Shown here: piece by piece, positions 56,815 to 64,000 of the stretch | How the letters are laid out: every line of letters starts with the position of its first letter | Numbering within the stretch: position 1 is the stretch's first letter | Assembly: GCA_026984135.1 (NCBI GenBank) | Contig: JALSSR010000095.1 | Location: 1,840 to 65,839, forward strand | DNA length: 64,000 nt | Source of the DNA: Bacteroidales bacterium | GTDB lineage: Bacteria > Bacteroidota > Bacteroidia > Bacteroidales > JAADJA01 | Reading direction: 5' to 3' | Notes under the pieces: generated by a model | Database searches by the model: none | The model's input: the letters and a program-made list of their open reading frames with translations, nothing else | Told to the model about the DNA's origin: nothing | Program-made: the position numbers and the translations under genes

Positions 56815-58098
56815 ATGAAAAGGATTATCATTTTTTTATTCATTGCCCTTCCGTTAATCTCTTTAACACAGGACAAAAAAAAGTTCGGAATTAAATTTCA
56901 TGGATTTGTTAAAACAGACATCTTTTTTGACACGCGTCAAACTGTTGATGCACGCGAAGGACATTTTCTACTTTATCCCAAAAATGAAGACCTTGATGCT
57001 CTTGGTACGGATATCAATGCTGCTTCCAAGTTCAACATTTTGGCCATTCAAACCAGGATAAAAGGAGTTATCACAGGCCCGGATATTTGGGGTGCAAAGA
57101 CTTCAGGCCTTATTGAAGGAGCCTTTTTCGGAAATATCGGAACCGACATTAACGGATTCAGGCTCAGGCATGCTTTCGTAAAACTTGCCTGGCCCAAAAC
57201 GGAGCTTTTGATAGGACAGTATTGGCATCCTATGTTCGTGACCGGATGTTTTCCGGGTACGGTTTCGTTCAATACGGGAGCTCCTTTCGAGCCTTTTGCC
57301 AGGAACCCGCAGGTGCGCTTCACAAAAAAGTTCGGGAAAGTCAATTTAATTGCAACTGCGCTCGAACAGGTTGACTTTGTAAGTGCGGGTCCCTACGGTG
57401 CAAGCCGGAAATACCTTATAAATTCGGCAATGCCCGAATTTGATCTCAGACTGGAATATAAGTCGGAAAAGTTTTATGCCGGGGCAGGTGCCAACTATAA
57501 AAGGTTAAAACCGTTATTAAGTATCAGAACAATCGGAACGAACGAAACAATCTCTTTAAAAGCTAAAGATTATGCTTCGGGAATGAGCTATTACGGATTT
57601 GTCAAGATTGCTCCGAAGCCGGTTACTATTAAACTTTACGGGATTTACGGACAAATGTTGTACAGTATGACAATGCTCGGCGGATATGCCGTCTCGGGAG
57701 TTGATTCCACTTTGGTTTCGGGTGAATATGCTTATTCGGGATTTGACTATACTCCCATTAACACATTGTCATTCTGGCTCGATTTCAACACCAACGGAAA
57801 GAAACTCAAAGTCGGACTTTTTGCCGGATACTCAAAAAATTTGGGAACATCGGACAAAGAGTATGATTTCCCGGATGGTGACAGAATATATGCCAGAGGT
57901 GCAAATATAGCTTATGCTTACAGGATAGCACCGAGACTTATTTATAACATAGGCAAGTTCAGAATAGCTCCGGAGCTGGAATACACTGTGGCTGCTTATG
58001 CTGTGAAAGATTCGACAACCGATGAGTTCGGGGTGATTTCCAATCCGAAAGAGATTGGTAACTTTAGGGTTTTATTGGGAGCCTATTTTTTCTTTTAA
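56815..58098 (+). CDS. outer-membrane beta-barrel porin-like protein
   Basis: Signal peptide, alternating amphipathic strands, C-terminal aromatic residue (...LLGAYFFF). Confidence 0.6.
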   Translation: MKRIIIFLFIALPLISLTQDKKKFGIKFHGFVKTDIFFDTRQTVDAREGHFLLYPKNEDLDALGTDINAASKFNILAIQTRIKGVITGPDIWGAKTSGLIEGAFFGNIGTDINGFRLRHAFVKLAWPKTELLIGQYWHPMFVTGCFPGTVSFNTGAPFEPFARNPQVRFTKKFGKVNLIATALEQVDFVSAGPYGASRKYLINSAMPEFDLRLEYKSEKFYAGAGANYKRLKPLLSIRTIGTNETISLKAKDYASGMSYYGFVKIAPKPVTIKLYGIYGQMLYSMTMLGGYAVSGVDSTLVSGEYAYSGFDYTPINTLSFWLDFNTNGKKLKVGLFAGYSKNLGTSDKEYDFPDGDRIYARGANIAYAYRIAPRLIYNIGKFRIAPELEYTVAAYAVKDSTTDEFGVISNPKEIGNFRVLLGAYFFF

Positions 58099-58209
58099 CA
58101 AGAGATCCGGTACTCCTCTAAAGTTTTGTGACGGGTTATTCGAGGGGTTGAAACTTGCAAATGTCAGGAAAAAAGAAACGGTTGAATGGTAAAATGGTTA
58201 AATAGGTAA

Positions 58210-58352
58210 CTGGCGACTGAAGACTGGCGACTGAAGATGCCGACCTTCGGTCGAGCATGCACGAAGCAAAGCTTCGGCACTGGCGACTGAAGACTGAAGA
58301 TGCAGACCTTCGGTCGAGCATGCACGAAGCAAAGCTTCGGCACCGGCGACTG
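58210..58352 (+). repeat. heptamer-phased GC-rich repeat with two copies (63-nt period) of the 51-nt double-hairpin core
   Basis: Core copies at 58236-58286 and 58299-58349, flanked by TGGCGAC/TGAAGAC heptamers. Same core as 30620-30670. Confidence 0.85.
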
Positions 58353-58403
58353 ATGACAAATAACAAAAACACAACATATTTATAAATTAAAAAACATACA
58401 GTT

Positions 58404-60326
58404 ATGCTTAAAAAAATTTCAAATTTTGCGGAATATTTTCAACAATACCAAAAGAGTGTTGACGACCCTGAAGGTTTTTGGGGTGCAATTGCCGAAAACT
58501 ATAAGTGGTACAAAAAATGGGATACGGTCCTCGACTGGTATTTCGAGGGCAAGGATGCTCCTTATGTGAAGTGGTTTAAAAATGCAAAGCTCAATATTAC
58601 CGAAAATATTTTCGAGCGTAATTTGCCTGAGCGTAAGGATCAGGTAGCTTTAATTTGGGAACCGAATAATCCGGAAGATAAAGAGATCAGGATTACTTAC
58701 GGTGAACTGTTTGAAAAAGTCAAACAATTTGCCAATGCCCTGAAAAAAATCGGAGTTAAAAAGGGTGACAGGGTTGCCATTTATTTGCCTATGGTTATTG
58801 AGTTGCCGATAGCTATGCTGGCTTGTGCAAGGATTGGTGCCATCCACTCTATAGTATTTGCGGGGTTCTCCGCTAATGCGCTGGCAGACAGGATTATTGA
58901 TGCCGAATCCAACGTTGTTATTACATCAGACGGAGGATACAGAGGAACAAAGACTATTCCTTTGAAAGCTATTGTTGACGAGGCTTTGAAATCTTGTCCT
59001 ACGATTGAACACTCAATAGTTTTGAAACATACGGGTGATGATGTTCCTATGAAAGAAGGACGCGATATCTGGTGGCACGACCTCATTGACGGTGTCGGTT
59101 TCGACAATGAAGCGGAAGTAATGGATTCCGAGGATACGCTCTTTATCCTTTACACCTCCGGTTCAACGGGAAAGCCTAAAGGTGTACTCCACACAATTGC
59201 AGGATATATGATGTATGCGGAATATACCTTCCTTAATGTTTTCCAATACAATGAAGGAGATGTGTGGTGGTGTACCGCCGATATCGGCTGGGTCACAGGT
59301 CACAGTTATATTGTTTATGGGCCGCTACTTGCCGGAGCTACTTCCGTAATGTTTGAGGGTGTACCCACCTGGCCCGATGCAGGTCGTTTCTGGGATGTGG
59401 TTGATAAATATAAAGTTAACCAGTTCTATACCGCCCCGACTGCCATACGCGCTCTCGTAGCCCAGGGAAATCAATATGTTACAAGCCATGACCTCTCATC
59501 TCTTAAAGTTCTCGGAACAGTGGGCGAGCCTATTAATGAGGAAGCCTGGAGATGGTATCACGATATCGTAGGAAAAGGTAAATGCCCCATTGTTGATACC
59601 TGGTGGCAAACCGAAACGGGAGGTATTATGATAACACCTCTTGCCGGAATAACTCCTACCAAGCCCTCTTTTGCAACTCTCCCGTTACCCGGTATTCAGC
59701 CTGTTCTCGTTGATAACGAAGGTAATATTCTTGAAGGAAACGGTGTTGAGGGTAACCTCTGCATCAAATTCCCTTGGCCGGGAATGCTCCGTACAACTTA
59801 CGGTGACCATAAGAGATGCTATCAGACTTACTTCTCGACATATCCCGGACTCTATTTCACCGGCGACGGTGCTAAACGCGACGAAGAGGGTTACTACAGG
59901 ATTATGGGGCGTGTGGATGATGTTATTAATGTGTCAGGTCACAGAATCGGTACGGCTGAGGTTGAGGACGCCATAAATCAGCACCCCAAAGTTAACGAGT
60001 CTGCAGTGGTTGGCTATCCTCATCCCATCAAAGGACAAGGTATTTATGCTTATGTCACTTGTGAAGAGTTGTCCGACAATGAACTTGAAACCATTGAGAA
60101 GGAAATCCGTGCAACAGTTACCAAAATGATCGGACCAATAGCCAAACCCGACGTTATCCAAATTGTCAGCGGACTTCCAAAGACCCGTTCGGGAAAAATC
60201 ATGCGCCGTATCCTCCGTAAGATTGGAGAAGGTGATGCATCCAATCTCGGTGACACCTCCACACTGCTTGACCCGGGCGTCGTAGAAGAGATAATCGGCG
60301 GTGCCAAAGTTGAAGTTAAACGATAA
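58404..60326 (+). CDS. acs: acetyl-CoA synthetase (AMP-forming)
   Basis: 640 aa with [20 protein letters not shown] and the [11 protein letters not shown] tail. Confidence 0.95.
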
Positions 60327-60338
60327 ATCTTCAAGCAT

Positions 60339-60370
60339 CGGGAAGGTCGTTTCCTTCCCGGTGTTTTTTT
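60339..60370 (+). terminator. rho-independent terminator-like hairpin between acs and the acetate channel gene
   Basis: CGGGAAGG-tcgttt-CCTTCCCG followed by gtgTTTTTTT. Confidence 0.6.
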
Positions 60371-60391
60371 ATAAATCAAAAAATTAATAAT

Positions 60392-60952
60392 ATGGAAAAT
60401 AAATTAGCTAATCCCGCTCCCCTCGGTTTGATGGGCTTCGGTATGACTACCGTCCTGCTTAATATTCACAATGCAGGATTTTTCCCGCTGGGATCAATGA
60501 TCCTTGCTATGGGAGTCTTTTACGGAGGTATTGCACAGGTTATTGCAGGAATTATGGAGTTCAGGAAAGGTAATACTTTCGGAACAACGGCCTTCACCTC
60601 TTACGGCCTTTTCTGGATGACACTCGTCTTTCTGATTGTCTTCCCCGTACTGGGTTGGCTTGAAAAACCGCCCGCAGGCTTTATGGGCTGGTATCTCTTT
60701 ATGTGGGGATTGTTTACCTTCTTTATGTGGATAGGTACTTTCGGTAAAAACCGTGCACTGCAGTTCGTATTCCTATCGTTGTGGATACTCTTTTTCCTGC
60801 TTGCCATCGAGCATTGGACCGGATCAAAGCCGGTCGGTACTTTTGCAGGATACGAAGGTATTATCTGCGGTCTCTCGGCAATCTATCTTGCTATGGCTGA
60901 AGTGATAAATGAATCTCACGGGAAAACGGTACTTCCCATCGGCGAAAGATAA
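60392..60952 (+). CDS. satP: GPR1/FUN34/YaaH-family acetate/succinate channel
   Basis: N-terminal [11 protein letters not shown] signature and six TM helices. Confidence 0.8.
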
Positions 60953-61309
60953 ATTTTTGAACTATCGGTTTTTTTTTTCAGCTGAAGCCTCAAAATTATT
61001 TTTGGGGCTTCACTGTTATGAATCGGCTGAATCGCTTGCATAAAATAATATTGTTTGTAAATATCGGATGGTGAAAAATAATCGTATAAAAAACGCAAGA
61101 CCACCTTTAACAGGATATCCGGTGGAGCGATGTCCCACTATTCAGTGAAACTTCGCAGTGCAAAGAAAAGGATAATATAATTAATTTTGAAATATCAAGC
61201 TTCTTAGAGGAGGATTTTTAAATTAATACAAGAATTTTCAAAGCAATGTACTCAAAGATTAAATATAACTTTAATAAGCAATTAACAGCTTGAACTTATT
61301 AACGAATAG

Positions 61310-61618
61310 TTATTGTTTGCCCGGAAAGGCATCAACATATCTGATGGTGAAGTCTTCAAAAGCATCAACATATCTGATAGTGAAATCTTCAAAGGCGTTG
61401 ACAAATTCCCATTCACCGCATTGGTCGGGATTGATGACATTTGTATCAACATCCAAATCTTCAAAGCTATCAACAACACGCACCTTGAAGTCTTCAAAGG
61501 CTTCTACAACGCGAACCTTGCCGTATAAAGGAATAGCTTTGCATTTGCAATCGTTGCTTATTGGTTCGTCATTAATCGTAACCGGAATTAATAAAAGTAA
61601 TAGTAAAAAAGATTTCAT
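61310..61618 (-). CDS. small secreted protein with tandem (A/S)FEDF(K/T)(V/I)R(V/Y)V repeats
   Basis: 102 aa with a signal peptide. Five FED(F/L) repeats. The two C-terminal units are a perfect 30-nt tandem duplication at DNA level. Confidence 0.55.
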   Translation of the reverse strand: MKSFLLLLLLIPVTINDEPISNDCKCKAIPLYGKVRVVEAFEDFKVRVVDSFEDLDVDTNVINPDQCGEWEFVNAFEDFTIRYVDAFEDFTIRYVDAFPGKQ

Positions 61619-62357
61619 AAAAAGAATATTAAATTAACACTTTATTCCTATCCAAGACTACGGGAATAATGCAAGAAATGTACCAATACGTTTTAATATG
61701 ATTTATTCACCGGTTATGCAGGTTTTTTTGTTTAATTTATAATCAAGCTCTTTGCATTTACCGATGAATTGGCGTTTAGGCATAGTGAATTTAATATGCA
61801 TGGAGTCCTTTTTAGGCAACGCCAGTCCTTTCCATTTGCTATCGGCTTGGTTATTGCCGCCGGACCCTTGATGCTGCATAGCCCGGGCAAATTTACGTAT
61901 CTGTTTTTTGATTGGATATTATGCCCCGCTTCACCACCTTCATTATGAATTTTCGCATATTCTTTGTAGCTTGAGATTGGATATGAATTGTTTGGGGTGT
62001 TTAGAAGTTTTTTTAAAAATAATTTGACATTTGTGTAATTACTTTTGTATATTTACAACCTTGATTCTACGGATTCGATGAACATCGTTGCCCCTATTAT
62101 TTCGGGGCTTCTGCTTTTTTATAAAATTCGGTTAAATTGCCGTACTCCCAAAGCCATACTTCATCTATTTTTTGACCTTCCAATATCCTCATGCCGATAT
62201 TTCTTTTGATAAAGTAGTGGTTGGCACCGCCTGAATTGCCAATAATCAATCTTGGCAATTGTTTTAGCCCTCTGTTGAATTTGCCGGCTTTCGACTTCGT
62301 AAAATTTGCCATCTATCAAGAGTTTCGGGCACCTGCGTTTATGCCTTGTACCTTTGG

Positions 62358-64000
62358 GTTGTGAATTGCTTTCATTTTGTATCCCCGCCTGACTGGCGCA
62401 GTCGGGCAGGTTTGACGTATTGAACACAGTCAACTGAATTTGAGGGAAAAGTAGAGAAGGGGAAAGATTATATTTTAGTTGATGATATTTTTACTACTGG
62501 ATCATCTCTTGGAGGGTTAAAAAATATATAGAATCTAATGGAGGCAACGTTGTAGCAATATTTACATTAGCTTCATCAAGAAAGAGAAGTGTTTTTTCTT
62601 TAAAAAACTTGATAAGAAAAAAATTAATTAGTAAATTTGCCGGAAGTGATTTAAATAAAACATTAAAAGATTATGGAATCGCAGAAAATATTGAGGATCT
62701 TACCGAAAGCCAAGGAGAATACATTCTCAAATTCGCCTCGCTTGACAAGTTCAGAAATGCAATCTTTAAAAGCAGATATGAAGAAGGCCTACGAGTATTT
62801 GATGAAAAGAAGAAAGAGTCAAAAGTAAGTAGTGATTCAGATTATTTAAAAAATAAAACATCTAAAGAAAAAGCCACAGAAGAAAATTATCAAAAAATAT
62901 TTGATGATATTTCAAAAATTGCTCCTAATGCTTTAACAGTTAAAGTTGTAGATTCTATTGATGATTTACCGGATTATGTTAAAACACATCCTTTATTTAA
63001 GTCAGATATATTTGCTGCGGTAAATAATGGAGAAACTCTTTTTGTATTAAAATCATCAATAGAAAGCAGAGAAGATGTAGTGAAGATTTGGTTGCACGAA
63101 AACGGAGTTCATCAAGGTTTAAAAAATCTTATTACTTCAGAACCCGAAAGAATAAGATTTTTAGAAAAAGTATATGATGACTTTATTGAAATAGAAAAAA
63201 AGATAATCAGTTTCAACAAGTAGTTGATAAAGTGATAAATGAATATAATGGAGCGACTAAAGATACTTTAGGAAATGAATTTTTAGCATATTTGAGCGGA
63301 AAAGTAATGGATGAAAAGAATTTGACTCCATCAGAAAAAACATTATGGAATACTTTATAAGTAAAAGTTGTGAATTGCTTTCATTTTGTATCCCCGCCTG
63401 ACTGACGCAGTCGGGCAGGTTTGACGTATTGAACACAGTTAAAAAGTATGGTATTGACACAACGAATTTGTTGTGAATTGCTTTCATTTTGTATCCCCGC
63501 CTGACTGACACAGTCGGGCAGGTTTGACGTATTGAACACAGTGATAAAGCAAAAGTAAAAGATGTGATGTTCGTTGTGAATTGCTTTCATTTTGTATCCC
63601 CGCCTGACTGACACAGTCGGGCAGGTTTGACGTATTGAACACAGTAGGATCAAGAACTTAAAGGTTAAGACATCGTTGTGAATTGCTTTCATTTTGTATC
63701 CCCGCCTGACTGACGCAGTCGGGCAGATTTGACGTATTGAACACAGTAAGGATCAAGAACTTAAAGGTTAAGACGTCGTTGTGAATTGCTTTCATTTTGT
63801 ATCCCCGCCTGACTGACGCAGTCGGGCAGGTTTGACGTATTGAACACAGTTGCAATAGATAATGCATATACATCACGGTAGTTGTGAATTGCTTTCATTT
63901 TGTATCTTTGACGTATTGAACACAGTAATAGAAAAATGAACAAAAACAGATTTTCAGTTGTGAATTGCTTTCATTTTGTATCTTTGACGTATTGAACACA
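62358..64000 (+). CRISPR. CRISPR array (Bacteroidota type II-C-like repeat), 8 repeats in window, continues past the right edge; no cas genes in window
   Basis: 73-nt repeats: 62358-62430, 63367-63439, 63470-63542, 63573-63645, 63675-63747, 63778-63850. 46-nt repeats: 63881-63926 and 63957-64000 (cut by the window). 46-nt consensus GTTGTGAATTGCTTTCATTTTGTATCTTTGACGTATTGAACACAGT. Spacers are 29-30 nt except for a 936-nt interval. Strand is assigned from the GTTGTG... convention only. Confidence 0.9.
62433..63360 (+). pseudogene. 5'-truncated, twice-frameshifted gene fragment occupying a spacer position (PRTase-like motif; resembles phage/conjugative-element polyvalent-protein segments)
   Basis: Segment 1: EFEGKVEKGKDYILVDDIFTTGSSLGGLKN*. 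Shift in an A6 run. Segment 2: KKYIESNGGNVVAIFTLASS...WLHENGVHQGLKNL...EKKIISFNK*. Shift in an A-run. Segment 3: DNQFQQVVDKVINEYNGATKDTLGNEFLAYLSGKVMDEKNLTPSEKTLWNTL*. The reading frame opens at the repeat edge, and the natural stop is 6 nt before the next repeat. Confidence 0.6.

Follow-up and report, generated by a model that had tools for sequence, protein, structure and literature searches.

How does nearly a kilobase of foreign protein-coding DNA come to lie precisely where a 30-nt spacer would be expected? This question is raised by a CRISPR array in a Bacteroidales bacterium (assembly GCA_026984135.1, contig JALSSR010000095.1, positions 1,840 to 65,839 of the forward strand; this 64-kb stretch is hereafter called the window). 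The + strand of the window ends in the array, which continues past the window edge. The interval between the first two repeats, R0 and R1, measures 936 nt (62431-63366), whereas every other interval in the window measures 29-30 nt; the original prediction, made from the letters of the sequence, had given the coordinates of both repeats and the 936-bp count exactly. Judged by homology, the 936 bp are a decayed piece of a large mobile-element polyvalent-protein gene. An oversized capture by the type II-C Cas1-Cas2 integrase, with repeat duplication, is our tentative explanation, with a probability of roughly 0.45.

A gene fragment between two complete repeats

The array is built of two forms of one repeat. 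The canonical form is 46 nt long (GTTGTGAATTGCTTTCATTTTGTATC continued directly by TTTGACGTATTGAACACAGT) and starts at 63881 and 63957. The expanded form is 73 nt long and consists of the 46-nt canonical repeat with a 27-nt hairpin, CCCGCCTGACTGACGCAGTCGGGCAGG, inserted after position 26; its six copies start at 62358, 63367, 63470, 63573, 63675, and 63778. All six copies of the hairpin in the 64 kb are within repeats, against a chance expectation of 0, and the predicted fold has a free energy of -22.8 kcal/mol for the expanded repeat versus -3.5 kcal/mol for the canonical one. R0 is a genuine repeat, as had been supposed: it has the full 73-nt form and is identical to R1 at 72 of 73 positions, the single difference being a loop base. 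R0 and R1 look like a duplicated pair: both are full-length, the lineage-specific 27-nt hairpin is present in each, and a single nucleotide sets them apart. No additional repeat copy was found to the left of R0, down to the sensitivity of blastn-short. The interval therefore resembles a spacer in being bounded exactly by two full repeats with nothing else between, but not in its length, which for spacers is set by the integrase ruler (29-30 nt here). The features of this part of the window are as follows.

62097-62357, - strand: C-terminal domain of a phage-type gene of the phrog_19194 family; this is the gene's 3' end, its 5' part being cut off where R0 begins, and it has two small internal deletions
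62358-62430, + strand: R0, the terminal, cas-distal 'extra' repeat, in expanded form; the flank-repeat junction is also present in the contigs L025, L027, and L028
62384-62410, + strand: hairpin insertion in R0, 27 nt, CCCGCCTGACTGGCGCAGTCGGGCAGG, with one loop base unlike the R1 copy
62431-63366, + strand: probable internal fragment of a polyvalent-protein-type mobile-element gene, now a pseudogene, in spacer position (from GC content, HMMER matches, and alignments running from residue 1 to 307/308 of 310)
62431-62790, + strand: C-terminal half of a phosphoribosyltransferase (PRTase)-like domain (YILVDDIFTTGSS motif) with a conserved tail; the N-terminal ~120 amino acids (aa) are missing
62519-62524, + strand: A-run, first frameshift
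62875-63357, + strand: second conserved domain (WLHENGVHQGL ... EFLAYLSGKV), which in homologs lies within polyvalent proteins and in protein P0002 adjoins LPD1
63195-63201, + strand: A-run, second frameshift
63358-63360, + strand: TAA stop, probably premature
63367-63439, + strand: R1, expanded repeat 3' of the fragment
63440-64000, + strand: ordinary part of the array, with expanded repeats at 63470, 63573, 63675, and 63778, canonical repeats at 63881 and 63957, and spacers of 29-30 nt

The GC content of the 936-bp interval is 28.5%, compared with 39.8% in the host part of the window. Its repaired translation has 310 aa and needs two frame changes; tblastn with the repaired protein gave three frame segments (62430-62522, 62516-63202, and 63196-63357), in agreement with the two A-run frameshifts initially proposed. 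The first domain comprises residues 1-120 and the second residues 150-308. A motif of the phosphoribosyl pyrophosphate-binding type had been recognized from the sequence, and profile searches support it. The fragment matches PF00156 below the gathering score (E=1.8e-4, 21.3 bits versus 26.3) at profile positions 85-136 of 158, with the N-terminal half absent, as well as several NCBIfam PRTase models at their positions ~100-150 and phrog_22413 at positions 123-236 of 242 (E=1.4e-16). The same PRTase-like domain is labelled KfrC or phosphoribosyltransferase in 92 plasmid records, 56 of which are predicted to be conjugative.

Large polyvalent proteins of phages and conjugative elements (the Pfam LPD families) are said to have been described by Iyer et al. 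in 2017, and the later segments of the fragment had been likened to such proteins. This weak call is correct: an unindexed HMMER search matched 932 proteins, and both domains occur inside proteins of 2000-6500 aa, sometimes collinearly in a giant protein (P0008, P0026, P0056, P0101). In P0002, Pfam LPD1 lies directly upstream of the matching region, and the gene is situated in a ~20-kb island with helix-turn-helix and DnaB genes and with housekeeping genes on both sides. P0004 combines the PRTase domain with a RadC-like JAB domain. The closest database proteins show 38-49% identity to the fragment. Unlike these giant proteins, the fragment has ~310 codons, appears cut at both ends, and is frameshifted, and no Pfam LPD-family domain was matched in the 310-aa translation itself.

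The left end of the fragment falls within a domain. The first codons read S-T-E-F-E-G-K-V, and residues 1-4 (STEF) already align with TPQFDGEV and SPEFSGEV of homologs, whereas the conserved N-terminal stretch of ~120 aa present in homologs is absent; the gene is thus cut mid-domain at the R0 boundary, and the 5' truncation exactly at the repeat, part of the original prediction, stands. The stop codon 6 nt before R1, taken at first for the natural one, is a different matter. All homologs of the second domain run at least 66 aa beyond the position of the TAA, and the five closest continue with a conserved LW followed by [RE]KYLxMFRxxLRRLFNF; because every homolog continues in this way, the fragment is probably 3'-truncated too. 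If one A is restored after TGG (63343-63345), the frame reads W-K-Y-F-I-S-K up to R1, compared with W-[RE]-K-Y-L in the homologs; this likeness, three matching residues in a very short stretch, is suggestive. Since the stop is probably not natural, nothing points to a repeat after the parent gene in its native context. Any spacer remnant between the fragment and the repeats could measure at most ~3 nt on the left or 12 nt on the right. The fragment is probably an internal chunk of a gene, cut arbitrarily at both ends, and such ends, arbitrary relative to the domains, would look like those of a random DNA fragment. Sequencing error is an unlikely cause of the frameshifts. An ENA record (ERZ27262647, contig k141_238397) is 100% identical over 58000-64000, both junctions included; the long host open reading frames (ORFs) in the window contain 107 A/T runs of at least 6 nt without a frame break, whereas in the fragment 2 of the 9 runs of this kind are sites of a frame change.

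The oldest end of a type II-C array

When 185,579 species genomes were scanned for the repeat's first 26 nt, 22 loci were obtained, nearly all in metagenome-assembled genomes (MAGs) of Bacteroidota; individual loci are given below by L numbers. In these related loci, read in the orientation of the CRISPR RNA, the genes for Cas2, Cas1, a 205-245-aa protein, and Cas9 are always downstream of the array on the opposite strand. Cas9 (HNH_4, RuvC_III), Cas1, and Cas2 are encoded without csn2 or cas4, for example in L001, whose repeats are identical to the canonical 46-mer, and anti-repeat matches are found upstream of cas9 in L003, L017, and L022. The window array is assigned to type II-C by repeat and leader identity, its own cas genes being situated beyond the window. 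The cas-proximal leader is conserved in 13 of the 13 loci where it is visible, including L023, which is the only other contig with this hairpin-bearing repeat, whereas the cas-distal flanks are mutually unrelated; L023 and L028 belong to the lineage of the window. In Riemerella (R. anatipestifer, 47-nt repeats), new spacers enter at the cas2-proximal end (PMC6008519), and a survey of >650 II-C systems takes the first transcribed repeat to be the oldest, the 'extra' repeat (PMC12080349). The position of the cas genes, the conservation of the leader and these published II-C experiments together place R0 and the fragment at the oldest, cas-distal end. The recency of the fragment implied by the original prediction is therefore reversed, and a cas-distal acquisition end, with the fragment as the newest spacer, is ruled out by the same two papers. 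No spacers are common to related arrays, so spacer sharing gives no polarity.

R0 corresponds to the degenerate 'extra' repeat (Feussner et al., 2025, PMC12080349) in being the first transcribed and oldest repeat, which in related arrays is mutated, truncated or provided with insertions. That paper covers point mutations, upstream terminators, and guide-sequestering hairpins; in the sections consulted, neither kilobase inserts between the extra repeat and its neighbour nor hairpins inserted inside repeats are described.

A look-up with the neighbouring SatP-like protein returned four other contigs of the locus. L025 is an identical ENA record, 108 nt longer than the window; L026-L028 are Logan contigs from short-k assemblies, which calls for caution about the single repeat of L028. 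This contig (Logan SRR7968113) is 100% identical to window positions 60340-62383 and then has one canonical repeat followed by the conserved leader (2019-2203); its single-repeat state may represent either a collapsed or a naive array. Because L028 joins the same flank to a single repeat and the leader, R0 is the terminal repeat of a chromosomal array, and the suggestion that R0 might be a solitary repeat unit of an integrated element is contradicted.

R0 is abutted exactly by truncated phage-type genes at both ends, so that a repeat boundary is a breakpoint twice in one array, on the fragment side and on the phrog_19194 side of R0. In the window, the 71-aa ORF to the left matches phrog_19194 at profile positions 368-432 of 438 (E=1.7e-7). 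In L027, which is 99% identical to the window, the frame is open for 113 aa from the repeat boundary and matches positions 324-432 of 438 (E=2.6e-25), with homology from residue 2; compared with L027 2318-2659, the window copy (62097-62357) has two deletions of ~34 and 50 nt. The PHROG profile alone identified this gene: a homology search returned only the gene itself, and tblastn against phages gave no match. In L012, an unrelated array, another phrog_19194-type gene is truncated at the repeat on the same strand.

Long intervals of 0.3-1.9 kb are found in 7 of the 13 repeat-family arrays with a visible cas-distal end, the window included:

Window, 936 nt: polyvalent-protein gene fragment
L002, 1117 nt: lipoprotein-like ORF, in the sole interval of the locus
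L005, 292 nt: no recognizable gene
L012, 1211 nt: small ORFs and a phrog_19194-type gene that is 5'-truncated and includes a CdiA_C-like domain
L013, 1867 nt: HicA toxin (Pfam), beside an ORF judged HicB-like by eye, with no family match
L014, 504 nt: YefM-like antitoxin without a toxin
L019, ~1430 nt: SEC-C-motif protein

Several of these inserts are pieces in which genes are cut, L012 and L014 being examples. The GC content of the six measured inserts (L019 left out) is 25-33%. The seven are confined to the two outermost cas-distal intervals of their arrays, compared with none among ~140 other intervals, and no spacer was found to match any long insert. Some regular process able to place kilobase foreign DNA between CRISPR repeats thus seems to be at work. 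The cas-distal repeats of L005, L008, L009, L010, L011, L013, and L019 contain differing hairpin-forming insertions; in such old-end repeats the insertion sites are after nt 15 (~33 nt long) or around nt 23-26 (18-27 nt long).

Proposed capture by the integrase and other possible routes

Integrase-type insertion is the best fit because the ends are repeat-exact (three in this array), the repeats are paired, and the gene breakpoints are arbitrary. Of three options originally listed, an aberrant oversized acquisition is accordingly the one retained. A random internal piece of a polyvalent-protein gene would have been inserted by Cas1-Cas2 between duplicated copies of a repeat; it would either have escaped trimming to 30 bp or have had its ends joined separately by two integrase complexes. 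Its point of entry would have been the leader-proximal repeat at an early stage of the array, possibly when this had one or few repeats, and later normal acquisitions would have displaced it to the cas-distal end. There it may have persisted because deletions between closely spaced repeats would rarely span a kilobase, and, being unselected, it has decayed, with two or three A-run frameshifts. The locus resembles canonical II-C acquisition (PMC6008519; reviewed in PMC12080349) in that foreign DNA lies exactly between two full repeats, that the neighbouring spacers have 29-30 nt, and that the repeat family is found beside cas9, cas1, and cas2 with a conserved leader; it differs in that the insert, at 936 bp, is ~31 times as long as a spacer and is leader-distal.

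Several points weigh against this explanation. Normal integration in the same array keeps to 29-30 nt, the array's own cas genes fall outside the window, and no paper or experiment was found in which Cas1-Cas2 integrated kilobase DNA in vivo; literature searches for long spacers or interrupted arrays likewise brought up no account of such an architecture. Nor was a parent element found in which a protospacer adjacent motif beside the source sequence could be sought. Capture at random times predicts scatter, whereas the seven inserts cluster at the cas-distal end (P ~1e-4 under uniform position), and this bias would need an added assumption, early capture or a deletion ratchet. Furthermore, L002, L019, and the HicA/HicB-like pair of L013 have intact genes with their own upstream regions, which could be ordinary insertions.

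If capture was early, giant inserts would be taken up while the array was beginning to grow. If a deletion ratchet operates, deletions between repeats would erode everything older than the insert and would rarely cross a kilobase. Early capture can be tested because a single-repeat variant of the locus exists and acquisition is boosted by apoCas9 in short arrays (PMC12477760). A wider proposal, which we think unlikely, is that the adaptation machinery of this clade repeatedly captures kilobase DNA, preferentially at the birth or rebirth of an array from a single repeat, so that 'giant spacers' begin arrays. The cargo would then include pieces of genes as well as complete ones, toxin-antitoxin modules among them; arrays would serve as occasional gene-capture sites, and the last ~24 nt of a giant spacer could give a working guide.

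The Cas1-Cas2 ruler is believed to fix spacer length tightly. Should these inserts be the work of the integrase, it would be able to act as a general DNA-insertion enzyme in vivo, with a bearing on casposon (transposase) ancestry, on the birth of arrays, and on recording and insertion tools. If a deletion ratchet or erosion of the old end is responsible, a concrete and testable picture of the ageing of II-C arrays would result. The locus is a natural test system, since public data contain it in a long-array and in a single-repeat form, and the cas-distal recurrence in related arrays together with the single-repeat state adds to its interest.

The position bias is explained without further assumptions if the old end simply erodes. 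According to this doubtful alternative, mobile DNA (a prophage or integrative-element remnant, or a transposon) arrived independently of CRISPR in or beside the oldest spacer and was later trimmed, and R0 is a remnant of older array sequence. Selection on a II-C array is weakest at the cas-distal end, whose 'extra' repeat is known to degenerate (PMC12080349). Degenerate or partial repeats and stray spacers occur at this end in L002, L005, L007, L010, L012, and L014, and the 1.4 kb between the SatP-like gene and R0 is AT-richer throughout (35.5% GC) and holds a phage-type gene fragment, so that debris of mobile elements borders the array. However, insertions or deletions that have nothing to do with the repeats would not be expected to stop precisely at three repeat edges, namely both edges of R0 and the left edge of R1. 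Positions 62431-63366 contain no transposase or integrase, no inverted repeat or target-site duplication, and no remnant of a spacer, and the repeats that flank the long inserts of L012 and L013 are perfect and identical to each other.

Homologous recombination guided by spacers predicts the same contiguous piece, repeat-exact ends, and arbitrary gene breakpoints as are observed. If two neighbouring old spacers derived from sites in one mobile-element gene that are separated by ~0.9 kb and agree in order and orientation, gene conversion or a double crossover involving the invader would fill in the 876 bp between them and remove the intervening repeat. Neighbouring spacers against the same target do occur (window 63646 and 63748; a pair in L014), and recombination between spacers and phage targets was reportedly observed in staphylococci by Varble et al. 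in 2019. We regard this route as distinctly improbable. It requires two 30-bp homologies in the correct order and orientation, leaves the cas-distal bias unexplained, and is a poor fit to the complete genes with upstream regions in L002, L019, and L013. Nor does it account for the repeat-exact truncated gene outside R0, where there is no second repeat. A single-crossover version is excluded, the first and last 30 nt of the fragment being different, and a single crossover of a circular element at a spacer, which would need them to be identical, is rejected likewise.

A further possibility involves a conserved ORF of 205-245 aa that is situated between cas9 and cas1 in related loci (L001:3885-4517, + strand, with equivalents in L002, L003, L015, L019, L020, and L022). 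The protein resembles REP (repetitive extragenic palindromic)-associated tyrosine transposases (RAYTs): it matches NCBIfam NF047646 with E=5e-13 (49 bits, short of that family's threshold of 80), shows HUH and Tyr motifs that can be aligned with TnpA-REP (PDB 4er8), and has no Pfam match; no description of a RAYT gene in cas loci was found in the literature. Such a protein might use hairpin repeats as ends or targets for 'peel and paste' on single strands, by which DNA would be shifted from one repeat to another, and the differing hairpin insertions in the cas-distal repeats of many related arrays, as well as the interspersed expanded and canonical repeats in the window array, would agree with this. 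On the other hand, the long inserts of L012, L014, and L002 lie between canonical repeats without a hairpin, the hairpin is found nowhere else in the 64 kb, and the gene is so far known from related loci. Y1 transposases, which work by the IS200/IS605 mechanism, join sequence-specific ends, unlike the arbitrary mid-gene breakpoints seen here. Involvement of the RAYT-like protein is consequently very unlikely.

Hardly credible is an assembly artefact, in which a chimeric join through collapsed repeats would have put a repeat-flanked fragment here: CRISPR arrays are often mis-ordered in metagenome assemblies, the cas side lies beyond the window, and the single repeat of L028, among the short-k contigs L026-L028, could be a graph simplification, but the JGI 66-kb contig and ENA k141_238397 (whose name we take to indicate a 141-nt k-mer, which would span a 73-nt repeat with unique sequence to its left and right) show no difference across R0, the fragment, and R1, a misplaced fragment would still need full repeats on both sides in real molecules, and six MAG contigs, which come out of several separate assembly projects, have the same architecture.

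Virus-borne mini-arrays, solitary repeat units, and RNA anti-CRISPR repeat mimics have reportedly been described by Medvedeva in 2019, Faure in 2019, and Camara-Wilpert in 2023. They share with this locus a repeat copy beside mobile-element DNA, and recombination between the array and a repeat carried by a mobile element had been proposed; unlike them, R0 is chromosomal, at the array end. The proposal lacks support: searches of IMG/VR (2.9 M contigs), of phages (50,697 records), and of plasmids (72,556 records) gave neither the repeat nor the hairpin, and a single crossover with a repeat-bearing element would not leave a contiguous internal piece with arbitrary ends; the element-borne repeat would have to sit natively in mid-domain. 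In the search for the parent element, the 936 bp gave no blastn match in phages or plasmids. A word-indexed protein search returned the window's own ORF only, an IMG/VR protein-pattern scan and a scan with a degenerate WLHENGVHQG were empty, and 133 concatenated spacers from all related arrays had no match in phage records. Two other candidates were rejected: for a tandem duplication of flank and repeat, the sequence left of R0 is unlike the end of the fragment, and two tandem arrays with the fragment as leader are at odds with its lack of resemblance to the conserved leader and to cas genes.

Integron cassette arrays offer an analogy only. They resemble these loci in having units of 0.3-2 kb, some with complete genes, toxin-antitoxin genes included, between structured direct repeats (compare L013 and L014); here, in contrast, there is no integron integrase, attI, or attC, most units are 30-nt spacers, and the window insert is a gene fragment.

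Further features of the array and its flanks

The two repeat forms are interspersed. In the 108 nt by which L025 extends beyond the window end, an expanded repeat follows the two canonical ones, giving six expanded, two canonical, and one expanded repeat in all, which suggests that the hairpin was gained or lost at single repeats and was not inherited as a block.

Two neighbouring spacers in the window, at 63646-63674 and 63748-63777, are near-duplicates, and a pair of this kind is likewise present in L014 (5538 and 5764). The near-duplicates have a common 3' end, a 1-nt difference in length at the 5' end, and one single-nucleotide polymorphism a few bases from the 3' (PAM-proximal) end, PAM being the protospacer adjacent motif. 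This looks like re-acquisition from an escape variant of one target. The core of the re-acquired spacer had no match in IMG/VR.

In the leader of L001-L004, L011, L015-L017, L019-L023, and L028, both ends of the repeat recur in inverted form (...ATCACAAC... and AAAAAAACTGTGTT); a hairpin and a T-run come after them. To the left of the window array, ~245 nt upstream of R0, positions 62024-62115 hold a near-consensus sigma-70-like promoter, TTGACA-18-TATATT (11/12 matches), and then a GCCCC/GGGGC hairpin with a T-run; this element may be an insulating terminator as reported upstream of II-C arrays. Farther from the array, at 58216-58341, a 63-nt unit with internal hairpins is present as a tandem duplicate (92% identity) just upstream of an acetyl-CoA synthetase gene.

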